Shown here piece after piece: positions 1,279-53,636 of a DNA stretch of 64,000 bases (position 1 is its first letter; every line of letters starts with the position of its first letter). The DNA lies in contig JBKBPM010000001.1 in assembly GCA_046293175.1 (NCBI GenBank), positions 299,446 to 363,445 of the forward strand. Direction: 5' to 3'. This DNA comes from Minisyncoccia bacterium. Its GTDB lineage: Bacteria > Patescibacteriota > Minisyncoccia > Phycocordibacterales > UBA918. The notes beneath the pieces were generated by a model. It saw only the letters and a list, made by a program, of their open reading frames with translations, had not been told where the DNA came from and made no database searches. A program made the position numbers and the translations under genes.

Positions 1279-2029
1279 TTTAGGGGTCCAACCCTGTGAC
1301 TGTGCACAATCACCGGGTTGGACCCCTAAAATGGGTATATCATTAAGTATGCCTAGAGCTGTTGTCCCGTTAGTGGCCGGTGAAATGTACCATGTCTATA
1401 ATCGTGGAGTAGATAAACGAGTGGTCTTTCAAAATAAAAATGATTACCTACGTTTCTATTTATCACTTGCGTATTTTAATAACCAGGAGCGAACTGAAAC
1501 TTTTAATTCAGCCAAGTTGAAATTTACAAACAGAAAAGAGCCCTTAGTGTATATACATTCCTATGCGCTATTACCGAATCATTTTCATTTACTGGTTGAA
1601 CCACTTATAGACACTGGGCTTAGTGAGTTTATGAAGCGCGTTTCAAATGGTTATACAGCGTATTTCAATGAACACAACAATCGTTCAGGAGCACTTTTTC
1701 AAGGCAAGTATAAGCGAGTGCATGTCGATACAGATGAATATAAAAATTATTTACTTGCGTACATTAATGAAAACCACTTAGTTCATGGTTTACCAGAGCC
1801 TGGTGAAGTCTACCAAACAAGTAAAATGCATTTAACAAATCAAATGAAGAGTATTGTTATTAATACTTCAATGCATGATATATACAATCAAAACGAAAAT
1901 ACAGCGCTGGCAAAAGACATCTACAGGCGAAGACTAGAATTAAAGACACTATTGTTTGAAACTGAGTAATGCTTAGCGTTATCTACAATTTAGGGGTCCA
2001 ACCCCGAGACTCGGGGTTGGACCCCTAAA
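1279..2029 (+). mobile_element. IS200-like (IS200/IS605 family, RAYT-type) element, about 751 bp: hairpin - tnpA - hairpin
   Basis: Palindrome tttaggggtccaaccc...gggttggacccctaaa at 1279..1330 directly abuts the tnpA ATG. A near-identical perfect palindrome tttaggggtccaaccccgag/ctcggggttggacccctaaa lies at 1989..2029 just after the tnpA stop. Size and organisation match IS200-type elements (TnpA only, subterminal hairpins). Confidence 0.6.
1331..1969 (+). CDS. tnpA: HUH/Y1 transposase, IS200/IS605 family TnpA (COG1943 / RAYT-like)
   Basis: Internal ATG of ORF 1088..1969. HxH motif (NHFHLLVEP), catalytic-Tyr region (QGKYKRVHVDTDEYKNYLLAYINENHL) and N-terminal YHVYNRGVDKRVVF are typical of the transposase-17 / RAYT family. 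Flanked by the two palindromes. Confidence 0.75.
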   Translation: MGISLSMPRAVVPLVAGEMYHVYNRGVDKRVVFQNKNDYLRFYLSLAYFNNQERTETFNSAKLKFTNRKEPLVYIHSYALLPNHFHLLVEPLIDTGLSEFMKRVSNGYTAYFNEHNNRSGALFQGKYKRVHVDTDEYKNYLLAYINENHLVHGLPEPGEVYQTSKMHLTNQMKSIVINTSMHDIYNQNENTALAKDIYRRRLELKTLLFETE

Positions 2030-2030
2030 G

Positions 2031-3110
2031 TTAGAGGCCTTCCTTACGGAGTTCTTCGATGAGTTTGCGGGCGGACTTGGAGACTGACTTCGGGAAGCCA
2101 ATTTCTACTTTGACCATAAAGTCGCCCCGAGCACGGCCATCAACTGGTACACCCTTCCCTTTGATACGGAGGAGTTCGCCATGAGTAATGCCAGCGGGTA
2201 TCGAGAGTGTCACCGGTCCATCTAACGTCTCGACTTTGTATTCGCCACCGAGGAGGGCGTCGGTGAGCTTGATACCAAGTCGTGTGTAGAGGGTCGAACC
2301 ATCACGCTTGATGGTCGGGTGTCCCTCGACGTGGACTTTGATGTAGAGGTCGCCGCTTTGACCACGTGGCAGCGCTTCCCCGCGGCCAGTCATACGAATT
2401 ACTTCACCGTTTTCGATACCAGCAGGTACTTTAATCGAGACTTCCTCTTCAGCGCGCATGATACCGGCCCCAGCACAGTAGCCACAGCGTTCCTTTGGCA
2501 CCTTACCGGTACCACCACAAGTATTACATTCGCGCACGGTTTGGAAGGTACCCATGATACTCTGGCGAGTCTCACGGATCTTGCCGTTGCCGTTACAGGT
2601 GGTACAGGTAGACATACTCGTCCCCTTCTTTGCACCGGCACCCTCGCAGTAGGTACAGGTGTTGTTTTTGTTGAGAAGTACATTGCGAGTAGTACCAAAG
2701 ACCGCTTCACTGAAGTTGAGGTTGATATCTATCGAGATATCACGACCACGAGATTGCCTTGATCTTCCTCCGCCAAAGCCAAAGTTTTCGAAGATATCAC
2801 CCAAATCAAATTCAAAAGTACCACCTTGGCCACCAAAGCCTTGCTGAAAGTCGGCCCAGCTGAAGCCACCAAAGCCCGCTCCTCCGCCACCGCCATTTTG
2901 ATAAGCGTGACCATAGGTGTCGTATTCGGCTTTTTTCTTTTCGTCACCCAAGACCGAGTAGGCTTCGGTGATTTCTTTGTACTTGGCTTCGTTGCCAGTC
3001 TTTTTGTCTGGGTGGTACTCGGCAGCCAGTTTACGAAAGGCCTTCTTCACCTCGTCACGTGAGGCGCCTTTTTGGAGTCCAAGTACTTCGTAGTAGTCTT
3101 TCATACGCAC
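2031..3110 (-). CDS. dnaJ: chaperone DnaJ
   Basis: J-domain with HPD (YHPDKK), Gly/Phe-rich linker, four CxxCxGxG zinc-finger repeats, C-terminal domains. Confidence 0.95.
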
Positions 3111-5825: not shown

Positions 5826-5917
5826 ACTCTCCCATTATAAATCGAAAAAACGTTGCTGTCAAAATAGTAAAACCGGCCCCACGTATGGAGCCGGTTGCAT
5901 TTTTGGTCGATGCCGCT

Positions 5918-6181
5918 TCAGCGTTTCTTCTTGATGATGTGTCGCGTGACTGGCGCGCTTATGGGTGGTCCTCCGTACGGCTCAGACACAACAACCAGCT
6001 TGCCGCGCTGCCACTGCACGTCCTGCCGTTCACTTTCGGCAGGCAACTTGCCGACGTCACCCTCGATGTCGACGACATCGTCGCAGTTGGCGGCAATGTA
6101 CAGGAAGCCGGTAAGCATATTTTGCCCGATCCAGGCATCGTCCGGTACACGGGTGTTGATGGGCGTTCCGGTTTTTTTCAT
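5918..6181 (-). CDS. hypothetical small protein (87 aa) upstream of grpE
   Basis: Good RBS GAAGGAG 6 nt upstream of the ATG. Basic C-terminal tail (IIKKKR). No recognised family. Confidence 0.45.
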   Translation of the reverse strand: MKKTGTPINTRVPDDAWIGQNMLTGFLYIAANCDDVVDIEGDVGKLPAESERQDVQWQRGKLVVVSEPYGGPPISAPVTRHIIKKKR

Positions 6182-6252
6182 CTGGTCACTCCTTCTGACT
6201 TTTGAAATTATATCACAGAATATAAAAAAATCAAAAAGCTACAAACACAAAC

Positions 6253-6276
6253 AAAATCCTCCCGAAGGAGGATTTT
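6253..6276 (-). terminator. rho-independent terminator-like hairpin (aaaatcctcc cgaa ggaggatttt) with U-tracts on both sides
   Basis: Perfect 10-bp stem. In minus sense it is followed by UUUGUUUGUGUUU. Lies downstream (minus sense) of repeat element R1. Confidence 0.5.
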
Positions 6277-6376
6277 GTGTTTTAACGCTTCGGACAGGAA
6301 ACGTAAAAAATGAAATGGAGAGTAAAGCGTGAGATTTCAAAACGGTAGAAATTGGATGCAATACGAGGCGCGCAAG

Positions 6377-6402
6377 AAAAAAGACCCGAATGGGTCTTTT
6401 TT
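6377..6402 (-). terminator. bidirectional rho-independent terminator (aaaaaagaccc gaat gggtctttttt)
   Basis: GC stem flanked by A6/T6 runs. Likely 3' end of the rpsI/R1 transcript. Confidence 0.55.
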
Positions 6403-6545
6403 CTTATTGTGCTTTGTTATAAAACGGAAAGTTTTTGATGTATGGCGAGGAGCATAGGAGAAAATGTTGTGAGTGGGATGAATAATCCAGCGAACAATGT
6501 TTTCTTCGTAGCGACAAAGCCAATCGTCAAAAATTATCGCTTCCC

Positions 6546-6701
6546 CACGAATCACTAAGTATATTTGTTCGCTACGCTCCAAATCTACCAAGTGTTCTCG
6601 GACCCGCCTCGCGGTTTTCTGCTTTGGTAAAGCAGAAAACATCGCTGCGGCCTCAAAACGATAATGGAGTCCAGCAGTGGACTCCATTTGATTATCGTTT
6701 T
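6546..6701 (-). ncRNA. copy R1 of a 3-copy structured repeat / candidate ncRNA family, immediately 3' of rpsI (overlaps the rpsI stop codon)
   Basis: Shares conserved blocks with 53305..53497 and 45708..45775: cacgaatcactaagtata, aagtgttctcg, cccgcctcgcggtttt and aaaacatcgctgcggc (plus strand). The stems between the blocks differ by compensatory changes (see findings). The G-U versus A-U pair in the long hairpin is only valid in the minus-sense transcript. Confidence 0.5.
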
Positions 6702-7096
6702 GACCAAGCTGGGCGCTTGCGAGCTTTAAGGAGACCAAACTTCTTACGTTCTACTGAACGAGCATCACGCTTGAGGAATCCGGCTTTCTTGAGGGTGGTA
6801 CGACGAGCGTCCTTTTCCTTCACGAGTGCACGAGCGATACCAAGTCGGATAGCGTCAGCCTGTGCTGAGATACCCCCTCCTTGTACCTTGGCGGTAATTG
6901 CGTAGTGCTCGATTCCAGCGTCTGGAGTGGCGAGTACTGACTCAATCACCTGTTGGTGACCAACGTGCTTGAAGTATTCAGCCAGTGGACGGTTGTTCAC
7001 GATGACTGAAGTCTCTTTGGCTGGCGTGAGACGCACACGGGTAGTGGCGGTCTTACGACGTCCAATGGCTTCAGTGTAACGAGTTGCAGTAGCCAT
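6692..7096 (-). CDS. rpsI: 30S ribosomal protein S9
   Basis: GRRK N-terminus and the characteristic C-terminus ...KARKRPAWSKR. Confidence 0.9.
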   Translation of the reverse strand: MATATRYTEAIGRRKTATTRVRLTPAKETSVIVNNRPLAEYFKHVGHQQVIESVLATPDAGIEHYAITAKVQGGGISAQADAIRLGIARALVKEKDARRTTLKKAGFLKRDARSVERKKFGLLKARKRPAWSKR

Positions 7097-44044: not shown

Positions 44045-44761
44045 ATGAAAAAGCATTTCTTTTTTGATATGGACAAGACTATTGCTCCATCACGTCAGCC
44101 AATCCTTAATGAAATGTATGAGCTATTATCAACAAGTCCTATAGATGTCGTCATTGTGTCAGGACAAACAGTGCCTTTAATAGCCTGGCAAAGTAATAAC
44201 CTACCGGCGTATCGACTGGGACAAAATGGCAACCATGCGGTTGACCGAGAAGGAGTAGAACTTTGGCATACACCACTCGAACAACATCACCGTGACCAGA
44301 TTCTCGATCATATCAATGAAGTTATTGAGATTCTTGACCATGAATTAAATCACGAGTGGTCCCCCATTGAAGACCGAGGTGCACAAATTACATTTAGTCC
44401 AATCGGCAATACAGCTCCAGTTGAGGTAAAAGCAACCTATGATCCTGACAGAAAGAAGCGTGAACATATTCTCGCCACCATTCCTTTTGCAGCAGAAGAT
44501 CTGGTTGTAAAAATTGGCGGGTCAACTAGTCTCGATTATCTTCACAAAGATCGACAAAAAGGTAACAATGTCCGAAAGTTCATTGATCTTCTGGGATGGA
44601 GCGATGATGCGTGTGTATACTACGGTGACGGTCTCTACCCTGGCGGTAATGATGAGTCAGTAATTGGCGTTATTGATACTGTCTTCGTTGAAGATCACCT
44701 CGATTGCTACCAAAAACTAGTTGAGTACCTTAAAAAGGACTCTCTGACCACTCCATCTTAG
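44045..44761 (+). CDS. HAD-superfamily hydrolase, eukaryotic-type phosphomannomutase (PMM)-like
   Basis: Motif I FFFDMDKTIAPSRQPI (DxDxT), like PMM LFDVDGTLTPARQKI. C-terminal GDGLYPGGNDESV resembles PMM motif IV. Confidence 0.65.
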   Translation: MKKHFFFDMDKTIAPSRQPILNEMYELLSTSPIDVVIVSGQTVPLIAWQSNNLPAYRLGQNGNHAVDREGVELWHTPLEQHHRDQILDHINEVIEILDHELNHEWSPIEDRGAQITFSPIGNTAPVEVKATYDPDRKKREHILATIPFAAEDLVVKIGGSTSLDYLHKDRQKGNNVRKFIDLLGWSDDACVYYGDGLYPGGNDESVIGVIDTVFVEDHLDCYQKLVEYLKKDSLTTPS

Positions 44762-45506
44762 CAACATCAACACCCGTTTCAGTCATCGTACCGTCTACCT
44801 TGGCATAAGCGGCTTCTTTGAGTGTGTTTATATCACAGATTGCATCTGTATTATTCGTGCGGCAGGTACTGGCGGCACTAAAGCGGAGTGGCGCTACGTG
44901 TCCAGGTGTACCGCCTTCACTAAAGACGAGGTGCCACTGCGTATTATCAAACGGGGCTGGTACATTCTTTAGCAGCTGTCCTTTATTTGAGAACGAGAAT
45001 TCTCGTTCTTCGAGTACGTCACCCTTGGAACAACTGATATCCGTTATTACCCAGGTTTTATCAGCCACTTTCATCTTCACCAAAGCAAAACCACTTGGAG
45101 TTCCGGTAGCGTAATCTGAAATGACCATCAGCTCCACTTCGGTAGGATTTTCAGAAACATATTTCATTTTAATTTTGTCTGGTGCTACGCTCTGGCAGAG
45201 TACTGGATCTACCCCGTCGTTTCCACCATTGAGCTTCGCTATAAGTGAATCTCGGACACCATTTTCAAGAGCGGTACTACTGAGGAGGATTGAGTCAGTT
45301 TTCATTTTACCACCATTAGCCTGCACCTCATCAAGCCAGGCATCATAAAAGTCAAAAGCAATATCAAGGGACTCAGGTAACTTGCGGGTGTCTTCATTCT
45401 TAAAGGTCATACTATTACTGAACCAAAAAAGCGCTGAACAAGCGGCTAAAAGTGCCACCAAAAAAACACCATAAATAATAAACTGCCGTTTAGAAACTGT
45501 TTGCAT
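44730..45506 (-). CDS. hypothetical membrane-anchored protein
   Basis: N-terminal TM. No motif. Convergent 32-nt overlap with the PMM-like gene. Confidence 0.45.
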   Translation of the reverse strand: MQTVSKRQFIIYGVFLVALLAACSALFWFSNSMTFKNEDTRKLPESLDIAFDFYDAWLDEVQANGGKMKTDSILLSSTALENGVRDSLIAKLNGGNDGVDPVLCQSVAPDKIKMKYVSENPTEVELMVISDYATGTPSGFALVKMKVADKTWVITDISCSKGDVLEEREFSFSNKGQLLKNVPAPFDNTQWHLVFSEGGTPGHVAPLRFSAASTCRTNNTDAICDINTLKEAAYAKVDGTMTETGVDVAKMEWSESPF

Positions 45507-45658
45507 AAGATCTAGATTATACCAGTGAAGACGCCTGCCTAGGACTTTACTTACGAGGGATGTATGGTGGTGGGTTAGATGGTGGTGGAATTTATCGTTA
45601 CATGGTTAGTATAGTTTATCGCTATTTTGTGTCGCAATGCTCGCAAGTAACTGGTAAA

Positions 45659-45834
45659 CTTTTGATTCCCCTAAGGTCGCACAACAGCAACGACATAGGA
45701 ATCGGTCACCAGTCACTAAGTATATTTGTTCGTTTCACTCCAAATCTACTAAGTGCTGTCCACCCCGCCTCGCCGACCCAGAGGGTCCCCGGCTACGTCT
45801 TTCGATTCCCCTAAGGTCGCACAACAGCAACGAC
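45659..45834 (-). repeat. copy R2 of the structured repeat family, bracketed by 36-bp direct repeats (1 mismatch) carrying an inverted 16-18 nt copy of the tRNA-Ala(GGC) 3' end
   Basis: Direct repeats ctttYgattcccctaaggtcgcacaacagcaacgac at 45659..45694 and 45799..45834. Between them, 45708..45775 matches the long hairpin and the CCGCGAGG block of R1/R3. Confidence 0.55.
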
Positions 45835-45865
45835 CACAATGCAAAAACATTGTGGTCGGCTGATT

Positions 45866-45938
45866 GTGGACCTTAGGGGAATCGAACCCCTCACCTCTTC
45901 CATGCCATGGAAGCGCTCTACCAAATGAGCTAAAGGCC
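45866..45938 (-). tRNA. tRNA-Ala (anticodon GGC)
   Basis: Reverse complement folds as a cloverleaf GGGCCUU/AAGGUCC with G3:U70, anticodon loop AUGGCAU, T-loop GGUUCGAUUCC and A73. No CCA encoded. Confidence 0.9.
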
Positions 45939-45947
45939 CGGTGCGTA

Positions 45948-45990: not shown

Positions 45991-47031
45991 TTAGACAATA
46001 AGCATCGCATCACCAAATGAATAAAAGCGATAGCGCTCTTTTATTGCTTCTTGGTATAGCTCCACAATGTGACGATTACCTCCTTTATGCTCGATATAAG
46101 CCTGCACAAGACAAAGGAGTGAGGACTTCGGCACATGAAAGTTTGTCATGAGGATGTCTGGATAGGTAAAGGTATATGGTGGGTAGATAAACAGATCCGC
46201 CTTTCCTACTTCACCCACTCCATTTCCAATAGCTCCTTTGGCACTTTCAAGCGTGCGTACGACGGTGGTACCCACTGCCATAATTGGTCGGCCAGCTGTT
46301 CTTGCGCTGTTGATAACCTTTGCCGTACTGTCTGGCACCACGTAGTACTCTTCGTGAAGTTTTTTGTTGGCAAAGTTCTCAGCAAAGATTGGCGCAAATG
46401 TTCCTAATCCGACCTGGAGGGTGACTGGTGCAACAGTGACTCCGACTTTGTTCAGCGATTCAATAAGACCAGGGGTAAAATGGAGCGAGGCGGTTGGTGC
46501 TGCCACTGACGGTGTCTCATGTGCAAACATCGTCTGATAATCTGCGCGTTTGACTGCTTCGTCGTTGGTATTTTTGATATATGGTGGCAGCGGTGTCTCA
46601 CCATGAGCCAGCAAGAGTGCATGTAGGATTTCTGCCTTTCCATTAAACTGGAGAAGTATGCTTTTCTCGTGATTTTCAAGTACCGTAAAGAACATATCAA
46701 ACACTTCGATGATACCCCCAAGCTGTACGCTACGATTCACGAGCGCCCGTACTTTACCCTCAGGCGTAATGCCTTGATCAACCAAAATGAGGAGTTCGAT
46801 GGGTTCACTGTTGTAGCTGCCTTTGAGCCGAGCAGGCAACACTTTTGTGTCATTCACAATCATCTGTGCTCCCGCTACATAGCGAGGAAGATCGCGAACG
46901 CTACTATGCGATACCGTATTGCTCCGTGTATCATAGACAAATAAACGAGCAGTATCGCGTGGATTAACAGGCGAGTGCGCTATGAGGTCAGAAGGAATAT
47001 CGTACGTGTATTGGTCGAACAATGGCTCCAT
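45991..47031 (-). CDS. queA: S-adenosylmethionine:tRNA ribosyltransferase-isomerase
   Basis: N-terminal YDIPSDLIAHSPVNPRD...RL and QueA-like length. Confidence 0.9.
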   Translation of the reverse strand: MEPLFDQYTYDIPSDLIAHSPVNPRDTARLFVYDTRSNTVSHSSVRDLPRYVAGAQMIVNDTKVLPARLKGSYNSEPIELLILVDQGITPEGKVRALVNRSVQLGGIIEVFDMFFTVLENHEKSILLQFNGKAEILHALLLAHGETPLPPYIKNTNDEAVKRADYQTMFAHETPSVAAPTASLHFTPGLIESLNKVGVTVAPVTLQVGLGTFAPIFAENFANKKLHEEYYVVPDSTAKVINSARTAGRPIMAVGTTVVRTLESAKGAIGNGVGEVGKADLFIYPPYTFTYPDILMTNFHVPKSSLLCLVQAYIEHKGGNRHIVELYQEAIKERYRFYSFGDAMLIV

Positions 47032-52975: not shown

Positions 52976-53304
52976 ATGGGTACTCGACTTCTTCTGCCGA
53001 GACACGTTTTGAAATCGCTTCGACCCACCGGCTCCAGTCATGACGACGAGAGAACGGAATACGGCGGATTGACTCGATATACTCGCCTACCATAACACAG
53101 GCCGTTACGTAAGCTTCTTTAAGGTCTTTGTGGCTCACAAAGTGCAGTGTAGCGATTAGCTTCTTTGTTGGCCATGGTGACCTCCTTGTCTGGCGGTAGC
53201 ATAGAGGATTTGAGTAGGATGTAAAATGGAAGACCCTCGAAGATTCGGTCCTTACAGAACCAGTACCCGTTGTCGCTATATTGTTTTGCAATTACTGCAG
53301 TGGT

Positions 53305-53497
53305 CACGAATCACTAAGTATAATCTCTCACTACGTTCAGATTCTACTAAGTGTTCTCGACCCCGCCTCGCGGTTTTTCGCCTTGCGAGGGCGAAAAACA
53401 TCGCTGCGGCTTCCACATCGGCACGGAAGCGATACTTATCGCTTCCTAGACAAAACAAAGACCACTCCAGTGAGTGGTCTTTGTTTGTCTGCCGATG
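53305..53497 (-). ncRNA. copy R3 of the structured repeat / candidate ncRNA family, abutting the 3' end of tRNA-Ala(UGC)
   Basis: Same conserved blocks as R1, with compensatory stem differences. An extra 5'-proximal (minus sense) multi-hairpin domain is closed by ccacatcggca/tgccgatgtgg, which includes the last 3 nt of the tRNA. Confidence 0.5.
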
Positions 53498-53570
53498 TGG
53501 ACCCGAGAAGATTCGAACTCCCTGCCTCCTCAGTGCAAATGAGGCGCTCTACCAAGTGAGCTACGGGCCC
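53498..53570 (-). tRNA. tRNA-Ala (anticodon UGC)
   Basis: Reverse complement GGGCCCGUAGCUCA...CCUCAUUUGCACUGAGG...GGUUCGAAUCU...CGGGUCCA. G3:U70, anticodon UGC, A73. No CCA encoded. Confidence 0.9.
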
Positions 53571-53607
53571 AAGTTTTGCAAGCGCGACACCTGCAAAGCT
53601 GGTGCAT

Positions 53608-53636
53608 ATACTACTTAATCTAGAGTAAATAGTCAA
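53608..53636 (-). promoter_or_regulatory. sigma-70-like promoter for tRNA-Ala(UGC): TTGACT -17- TAGTAT
   Basis: Good match to consensus. The -10 lies 37 nt upstream of tRNA position 1. Confidence 0.5.

Follow-up and report, generated by a model that had tools for sequence, protein, structure and literature searches.

Why should a sequence that occurs twice beside a tRNA gene carry, each time, an inverted piece of that same tRNA? The question is raised by a 64,000-nucleotide (nt) stretch of a Minisyncoccia bacterium genome (contig JBKBPM010000001.1, forward-strand positions 299,446 to 363,445), hereafter called the window, in which two 36-bp direct repeats lie downstream of the gene for tRNA-Ala(GGC). 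The original prediction preferred to see in them a remnant of site-specific integration and excision at the tRNA gene. By comparing the locus with its relatives, we came to a different reading that we consider likely: the locus is the 3' flank of tRNA-Ala(GGC) carrying a copy (R2) of an element that we call R, the two repeats are the leaders of tandem units, and R itself is likely an RNA made by transcriptional read-through. The parts of the locus on which this reading is built are the following, from the tRNA outward.

45866-45939, minus strand: intact tRNA-Ala(GGC), CCA not encoded (ARAGORN and Rfam RF00005, 62.4 bits)
45869-45886, minus strand: X, UUCGAUUCCCCUAAGGUC, which is the T-loop of this tRNA with the 3' strands of its T-stem and acceptor and forms the outer part of the long hairpin P1 on its ascending side; exact complement of the repeat 2 arm
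45831-45858, minus strand: hp1, terminator-like hairpin and tip of P1, CGACCACAAUG-loop-CAUUGUGGUCG with tail UUGCUGUUGU (terminator scan)
45799-45834, minus strand: direct repeat 2, the leader module; its context matches the module after hp1 in the orthologous locus L184
45773-45798, minus strand: R2 branch 1, with the P5 5' strand, a GUA loop, P6 (GCC/GGC) and hairpin b (GGGGACCCUCUGGGUC), parsed with the family
45701-45772, minus strand: R2 core, made of CGAGGCGG, P4 and the long conserved hairpin, whose internal loops are invariant (covariance model, 88.4 bits, E = 3e-18)
45698-45704, minus strand: short sense arm CGAUUCC, which closes R2 with GGAAUCG of the arm (from the sequence; also in the orthologous loci L183 and L184)
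45659-45694, minus strand: direct repeat 1, the second copy of the leader module, arm 17/18, no unit behind it
45595-45626, minus strand: AUAGCGAUAAACUAUACUAACCAUGUAACGA, a degenerate "D module" that marks the distal limit of the element (motif search; compare the intact one at 53247-53279)

The two repeats are as originally described: each is 36 nt long, they are identical at 35 of 36 positions with one mismatch, and they are the only two copies of the 36-mer in the window, where shuffles expect 0. The inverted copy of the tRNA-Ala(GGC) 3' half that had been noticed in each of them is also there, 16 nt long in one repeat and 18 nt in the other. This sequence, TTCGATTCCCCTAAGGTC, corresponds to tRNA positions 54-71, that is to the T-loop, the T-stem 3' strand and the acceptor 3' strand, and takes in U70 of the G3·U70 pair of tRNA-Ala(GGC). 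On the plus strand it is exact in repeat 2 (45801-45818) and has 1 mismatch in repeat 1 (45661-45678), and on the minus strand it lies within the tRNA (45869-45886), which makes 3 matches in the window for 0.00 expected. The tRNA-derived arm is only part of the module, since repeat 2 consists of the last 4 nt of hp1, a U-rich tail with a linker, and the 18-nt antisense arm (45801-45818), and its linker GCUG/UUGUG complements the tRNA trailer CAGC/CACAA.

That these repeats arose by chance or in the assembly has, in our view, a negligible probability. Same-organism Logan assemblies do break at the repeat, as would be seen with an artefact, but they break exactly at the 31-mer that both repeats share. 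One such contig, from an independent assembly of the same organism, begins at repeat 1 with its private A variant, and its break is the exact start of that 31-mer; the duplication is therefore no assembly artefact. In addition, shuffles expect 0 copies and homologous modules are found in L183 and L184.

Read on the minus strand, the order of the locus is tRNA, short trailer, hp1, leader module and R domain. Within this order we found a hairpin of about 39 bp, P1, whose ascending strand is made of the tRNA T-loop, the acceptor 3' strand and the trailer, and whose descending strand is the leader, that is repeat 2. The pairing is continuous in the window: UUCGAUUCCCCUAAGGUC-CACAA-U-CAGC-CGACCACAAUG, loop, CAUUGUGGUCG-UU-GCUG-UUGUG-C-GACCUUAGGGGAAUCGAA. 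P1 is the dominant feature when the tRNA-R2 transcript is folded to minimum free energy (z = -8.6), and the stem formerly proposed between repeat 2 and the tRNA is borne out in this fold, where the 18-nt exact complement is paired. Since repeat 2 is the descending strand of P1, its tRNA-derived and non-tRNA halves share one explanation. The pairing ends at tRNA position 71, where the C of the arm faces C72, and leaves the CCA outside; we rejected a retrovirus-type primer binding site because the pairing stops short of the tRNA 3' end.

The second hairpin that had been seen between repeat 2 and the tRNA is real and corresponds to hp1. With 12 pairs, a G+C-rich stem and the U-rich tail TTGCTGTTGT, it has the makings of a predicted intrinsic terminator, and its stem shows a compensatory change with respect to L184 (CCACAATG/CATTGTGG versus CCGCAATG/CATTGCGG). 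A similar architecture is found in the family, where the sequence before the (A/G)GCC of R pairs with the 3' end of the tRNA and its trailer, around a terminator-like hairpin; judged without a systematic count, this holds for most of the 41 tRNA-linked elements that were folded, and for all those inspected by eye. P1-type hairpins in the family often enclose a second hairpin, and in the window as in family elements a long hairpin with terminator features directly precedes R. Whatever the stem, CUGC (GCAG on the opposite strand) is a very frequent loop of the hairpin immediately upstream of R (for example in L078, L080, L106 and L127, and in the window at 6663-6688). A pseudoknot between these CUGC loops and the GCAG of the core was considered and rejected, as inspection by eye showed no covariation; the loop has no covarying partner that we could find.

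The 104-bp segment between the repeats had been said to hold a copy of a repeat family, and the covariance model places the R2 core there. By using this model, we found exactly three R copies in the window, all on the minus strand, with scores of 87-93 bits. A strict core pattern, CACTAAGTATA-N34-44-CCCGCCTCG, then retrieved 100 stretches from metagenomes of lakes, groundwater, wastewater and mats; nearly all are true members, about 90 are distinct, and the hosts are Paceibacteria-like bacteria of the candidate phyla radiation (CPR). By aligning 64 distinct cores, we obtained an irregular long hairpin of 22 pairs in which 94.4% of the cells are paired, compared with 27-42% in slid-alignment controls. 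Seven core pairs show double-sided changes (90 cells), a result that was reached by 0 of 500 shuffles. The whole R domain is Y-shaped, with one branch made of P5, P6 and the variable hairpin b and the other made of P4 and the long, nearly invariant hairpin. P6, although only 3 bp long, covaries (GCG/CGC, GGC/GCC, GAC/GUC, GCC/GGC, GUC/GAC) and flanks the hairpin of variable sequence.

The same alignment indicates the strand. Core pairs contain 102 G·U against 4 A·C combinations, including one invariant G·U, and the folded strand is therefore the minus strand of the window, in the sense of the tRNA. The second option of the original prediction, an element that mimics and is antisense to the tRNA 3' end, was thus essentially right: the RNA sense is minus and the 18-nt arm can pair. 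When R2 and R3 were searched against Rfam 15, only the two tRNAs passed and nothing plausible appeared at E<=10; full-text literature searches returned no description of an R-type element, and IMG/VR viral contigs gave no R match. R is an undescribed, highly conserved family of structured RNA elements.

The two other copies in the window, R3 behind tRNA-Ala(UGC) and R1 behind rpsI, which encodes ribosomal protein S9, are built as follows.

53232-53570, minus strand: R3, sister element, intact, whole (covariance model and motif searches)
53497-53570, minus strand: tRNA-Ala(UGC) of R3
53413-53500, minus strand: P1 of R3
53371-53412, minus strand: branch 1 of R3
53299-53370, minus strand: core of R3
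53247-53279, minus strand: D module of R3, intact
53232-53248, minus strand: direct, partial and decayed copy of the tRNA 3' half in R3
6540-6702, minus strand: R1, sister element after rpsI (S9), whole
6654-6702, minus strand: terminator-like P1 hairpin of R1
6612-6653, minus strand: branch 1 of R1
6540-6611, minus strand: core of R1

Beside R1, between grpE and the element, lies an unusually G+C-rich stretch (5826-6545) with an 87-aa open reading frame (ORF) at 5918-6181 on the minus strand, which has a strong ribosome-binding site (AGGAGTG) and no Pfam match; terminator-like hairpins at 6255-6280 and 6374-6405 bracket the ORF of this stretch. ORFs of 84-130 aa also run antisense to the R structure, at 45560-45814 (+) and 53226-53618 (+) in the window and at 2686-2979 (-) in the related locus L173. 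ORFs called across R elements, such as a 97-aa ORF in L173, are probably spurious.

Two further features accompany R units. Divergent core subtypes, for example GGGGUCGCACGAGUGUGG...CCCACGAGAGUGACC, reach only about 27 bits with the covariance model (L183 2215-2320; L184 1450-1560; L173 2785-2851; the L104, L162 and L163 arrays). Within arrays they take turns with canonical units, and the family therefore exceeds the strict-pattern count. The D module stands 3' of R units and reads (A)UAGCGACAAC-NNN-GUACUG, followed by a hairpin that has a UGUAA loop and a stem covarying from locus to locus. It was found in the window (53247-53279, and degenerate at 45595-45626), at L173 2883-2925 and in L153, L130, L115 and L165; its loop resembles an anticodon loop (C-U-GUA-A-G), and behind the module there is usually a partial copy, in the same sense, of the 3' half of the cognate tRNA.

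R units also occur in tandem. We counted 10 unique tandem pairs with periods of 111-188 nt, a range that includes the 140-nt spacing of the repeats in the window. Orthologous loci allowed us to relate the two repeats to such arrays. In L183, whose neighbour protein is 75% identical, the order is tRNA-Ala(GGC), a terminator, R (89 bits), ...GACCGAUUCC-AAU, then GUCGUUCUAUUGUGA-GACCUUAGGGGAAUCGAAAG, and a second, divergent unit ending in GUGACCGAUUCCC. In L184 (neighbour protein 62%, with queA adjacent as in the window), the tRNA and hp1 are followed by GUCGUUGUCAUUGUGA-GACCUUAGGGGAAUCGAAAG, a unit and a degenerate second unit. The leader module therefore occurs in these relatives once per unit, at the starts of successive tandem units. 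Alignment A3 showed that the upstream context of repeat 2, which is hp1, is common with L184, and that the upstream context of repeat 1 (ACCGAUUCC-UAUGUC) is that of the L183 inter-unit junction, where a second unit follows; repeat 1 would therefore be the leader of a second unit whose body was lost. On these alignments, the two repeats are best read as the leaders of an intact unit 1 (R2) and of a body-less unit 2, with 140 nt as the array period.

The 18-nt arm is identical in the window, L183 and L184, in which only 7 nt (CGAUUCC) are left of its intramolecular partner, and the adjoining linker differs at 4-5 positions. Given that the repeats are 35/36 identical within the genome and that the linker shows 4-5 differences between genomes, a recent duplication or conversion may have made the two copies alike. 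Among the relatives examined, L183 and L184 keep the module and R-type units, whereas the third locus, L173 (neighbour protein 83%), is rearranged and has a single hybrid unit, a decayed linker and a different insertion; none of these relatives is a same-species strain. QueA (45991-47031), the neighbour beyond the tRNA in the window, has its best species-level relative, and the closest one in the genome collection, at 57% identity in a Nomurabacteria metagenome-assembled genome, and same-organism Logan contigs are short. On the other side, the protein encoded at 44730-45506 is 100% identical to a hypothetical protein from a 'Candidatus Paceibacteria' metagenome-assembled genome; the organism accordingly falls within the CPR (Patescibacteria). 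The insertion in L173 (927-2668; also in L174-L182) is a csoR / MauE / DUF305 copper-type cassette of about 1.65 kb, which in these relatives (83% protein identity) sits between the intact tRNA-Ala(GGC) and a degenerate direct 3'-end remnant, GGTTCGGTAAATTTCCCCTATAGTCCAC. A palindrome resembling a CsoR box, ATACCCCCTAGGGGGTAT, lies 3' of the tRNA there, and the cassette has the look of a small island that went into the 3' end of the tRNA gene.

Then, we asked where R stands with respect to genes. Among the 92 unique copies with enough upstream sequence, 48 (52%) have the end of a same-strand tRNA at most 300 nt upstream and only 2 that of an opposite-strand tRNA. The upstream tRNAs belong to 18 amino-acid types, and both tRNAs of the window have R behind them. 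Most other copies stand behind the end of a same-strand gene, the protein genes before R including those for FtsZ (3 loci), ribosomal protein L2 (2), elongation factor G (2) and S9 (6, including R1 of the window). The position is stable over orthologous tRNA-Ala(UGC)-R loci (L079, L110, L113, L130, L131 and L002).

No promoter-like site was found between tRNA and R in promoter scans, and a promoter within the conserved boxes was rejected as well for lack of a consistent -35/-10 spacing. R is promoterless and lies on the strand of a stable-RNA or highly expressed gene, past that gene's terminator, which is the location of a read-through or trailer small RNA (sRNA). Because there is no promoter between the tRNA and R2, R is most likely a read-through product, and our best guess for the R domain is a terminator read-through RNA. 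In such a mechanism, R would most likely be made only when RNA polymerase reads through hp1. In the resulting RNA, the arm could strip the acceptor and T strands of the tRNA and form P1, and the R domain might serve as a conserved platform for a protein or RNA partner, or in processing.

Several other functions were considered and set aside. R as a 5' leader or riboswitch does not fit L002, where the next gene is convergent, nor R1, which terminators cut off from the next gene. A T-box leader was rejected, with no RF00230 match even at E<=10 and an element that stands 3' of genes. A tmRNA (transfer-messenger RNA), a permuted tmRNA or a plus-strand tRNA-like gene was not found by ARAGORN, and the excess of G·U over A·C combinations assigns the RNA to the minus strand. 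R2 as the leader of the gene downstream (44730-45506, minus strand) was rejected because that gene has a conserved -10 box of its own:

45516-45524, minus strand: extended -10 box TGGTATAAT of the downstream gene, kept in L173

This box was read by eye and the promoter scan did not list the site; given its conservation in L173, the gene is predicted to have its own promoter.

How general is the match between arm and tRNA? The closing arms of R differ at every locus and measure 4 to 22 nt. Among 50 tRNA-linked elements, 12 have an antisense arm whose match to the cognate tRNA, 11-19 nt long, exceeds all non-cognate matches (max 9-12 nt). Direct copies of the segment from T-loop to tRNA 3' end, 12-18 nt long and cognate-specific, are found at the far side of the element in 18 of 44 cases. 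Moreover, the trailer, linker and core subtype of R2 also occur on tRNA-Gly and tRNA-Phe elsewhere, with arms matched to those tRNAs. The match may mean that the pairing is selected, or possibly that the palindrome was grown or corrected on the tRNA by template switching, which within palindromes is a known mutational process. A count of the tRNA nucleotides that pair with downstream sequence in minimum-free-energy folds was uninformative, as it gave equal scores for tRNAs that lack R.

One could go further and regard R as a class of tRNA-coupled RNAs not recognised before, in which a hairpin that takes up the 3' half of the upstream tRNA would join the Y-shaped domain to most tRNA genes and to the top-expressed operons of Paceibacteria, and which would act in cis on read-through transcripts; we make this proposal tentatively and hold it to be rather doubtful. 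R might then possibly capture the tRNA 3' half for maturation control or a quality check, or serve in cutting or insulating read-through RNA in genomes that are very compact, and new copies would re-tailor their arms by templated palindrome extension.

Several observations weigh against R2 as a read-through RNA with tandem-unit leaders. The pairing of arm and tRNA would destroy the cloverleaf, and hp1, like many P1 tips, resembles an efficient terminator in front of an element that, as far as its sequence tells, has no promoter. The G·U argument is equally valid for single-stranded DNA of the minus strand. A long tRNA-derived arm is missing from about half of the tRNA-linked copies, and the pairing can therefore not be essential to the R domain. 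An inverted repeat of the tRNA 3' end of at least 9 nt is found downstream of 19 of 42 tRNAs with R but also of 11 of 41 without canonical R, some of which carry divergent units; exact inverted-repeat lengths thus separate the two groups weakly, and their link to R is moderate. Repeat 1 has neither a pairing partner nor a unit, and the lost second unit that it would have led rests on two orthologous loci. Finally, the recent duplication or gene conversion behind the 35/36 identity is an assumption.

The reading by integration, in which the repeats are att-type duplications of the tRNA 3' end left by an element with a tyrosine or serine recombinase and later inverted, draws on the fact that tRNA 3' halves are reportedly the classic att cores of islands and phages. 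The direct cognate copies that end 18 of the 44 elements are of this kind, and the csoR / MauE / DUF305 cassette between tRNA-Ala(GGC) and its remnant in L173 indicates that islands use this very tRNA. The 36-mers themselves, however, are antisense to the tRNA and only half tRNA-derived, their other half being a terminator tail and a linker that pairs with the trailer. Between them there is neither recombinase nor cargo, only 104 bp that hold a conserved RNA domain, and the module is kept at the orthologous locus at 62-75% protein identity, in unit-start positions. The same design at tRNAs of 18 amino-acid types would need as many recombinase specificities, and IMG/VR viral contigs, as said, lack R. 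We therefore consider an integration scar very unlikely for these repeats. An insertional origin of the R family at tRNA 3' ends is possible, given the direct 3'-half copies, but does not explain the two 36-mers.

A selfish hairpin element is also unlikely, though less so. Such an element would be non-autonomous DNA of the MITE (miniature inverted-repeat transposable element), REPIN or IS200/IS605 type that moves as folded single strands and inserts behind terminator or tRNA hairpins; the tRNA copies would be its footprints, left by palindrome extension or target duplication, and the 36-nt repeats would come from a local duplication in such an event. The multi-copy, strand-specific and hairpin-rich nature of R is in line with this, as are the cognate-specific inverted and direct tRNA-end copies, which look like footprints, and the occurrence, from genome to genome, of one trailer, linker and core subtype on tRNA-Ala, tRNA-Gly and tRNA-Phe. 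The tolerance of G·T would be expected of single-stranded DNA as much as of RNA, and the window itself holds a Y1 (IS200-like/RAYT-like) transposase with palindromic doublets (1279-2029). These palindromes are unrelated to R, however, in which TTTAGGGGTCCAACCC does not occur. The R core, in which internal loops are invariant and compensatory changes occur, is conserved between genomes with only 40-60% protein identity, whereas selfish repeats are species-specific, and orthologous positions are stable (tRNA-Ala(UGC)-R in six loci). Neither conserved terminal inverted repeats nor a target duplication of fixed length was found, as a MITE would have.

The transposase gene is worth recording for its own sake. 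The Y1_Tnp ORF (about 1352-1969, plus strand; Pfam PF01797, E = 6.6e-7) is flanked on both sides by head-to-head TTTAGGGGTCCAACCC doublets (1279-1330 and 1989-2029), and beyond these four copies the window has none; it is a RAYT/REPIN-like arrangement in a CPR genome.

Tiny as they are, CPR genomes keep many copies of this domain of about 130 nt, in which the sequence of the hairpin region is better conserved than their proteins. Its position points to a so far unknown step in the way a large uncultured bacterial clade handles RNA 3' ends, insulates termination or matures its tRNAs. The alignment and covariance model are ready for a new RNA family, and the cognate inverted and direct tRNA-end copies offer a natural case in which structured elements acquire locus-matched stems. 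For annotation, R calls for caution: tRNA-fragment repeats beside tRNA genes are not always integration scars.

Finally, we compared R with known systems. GOLLD and ROOL, large RNAs of 400-800 nt that are often found beside tRNA genes, are orphan structured RNAs with a marked tRNA-gene association as well; they are single-copy, often in prophages and both in Rfam, whereas R has no Rfam or IMG/VR match. The REP/BIME, ERIC and Correia repeats are likewise dispersed, hairpin-forming, transcribed repeats at gene 3' ends, but they are simple palindromes specific to a species or genus, whereas R is multi-helix, deeply conserved and orientation-locked to the upstream gene. With att sites, R shares a duplicated segment from T-loop to tRNA 3' end, seen in the direct copies at the far end of many elements; the 36-mers differ from them in being antisense, in lacking a recombinase, in an "insert" of 104 bp and in the many tRNA types concerned.

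As a structural precedent for copies of a tRNA end in tandem units behind the gene, the nearest case appears to be the distal repeat of E. coli tyrT, which is reported to consist of 3.14 units of 178 bp, each with the last 19 nt of tRNA-Tyr. Both systems have tandem units 3' of a tRNA, each with a copy of the tRNA 3' end, and direct repeats at the unit period. The tyrT fragment is direct and its unit locus-specific, whereas that of R is inverted, forms a hairpin with the tRNA and precedes a family-wide RNA domain. With respect to function, the trailer RNA 3'ETS-leuZ (3' external transcribed spacer) reportedly acts as an sRNA sponge. Like R, if R is functional, it is a functional RNA from the trailer of a tRNA transcript; it is short and locus-specific, however, is no dispersed conserved fold and holds no copy of the tRNA end.

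Together with such tRNA 3'ETS RNAs, the rrA, rrB and rrF sRNAs of E. coli, which lie between the dual terminators of rrn operons, appear to be the nearest functional analogues of R (PMC8144298). R and these RNAs are alike in being short RNAs placed right after the first terminator of a stable-RNA operon with very high expression, promoterless and present in nearly identical copies; production by read-through would be a further likeness, predicted for R from its sequence context (PMC8144298). R differs in being larger, Y-shaped and covarying, in its occurrence behind any tRNA type and behind protein genes, in its tandem arrays, and in an entry hairpin that takes in the tRNA 3' half (PMC8144298).

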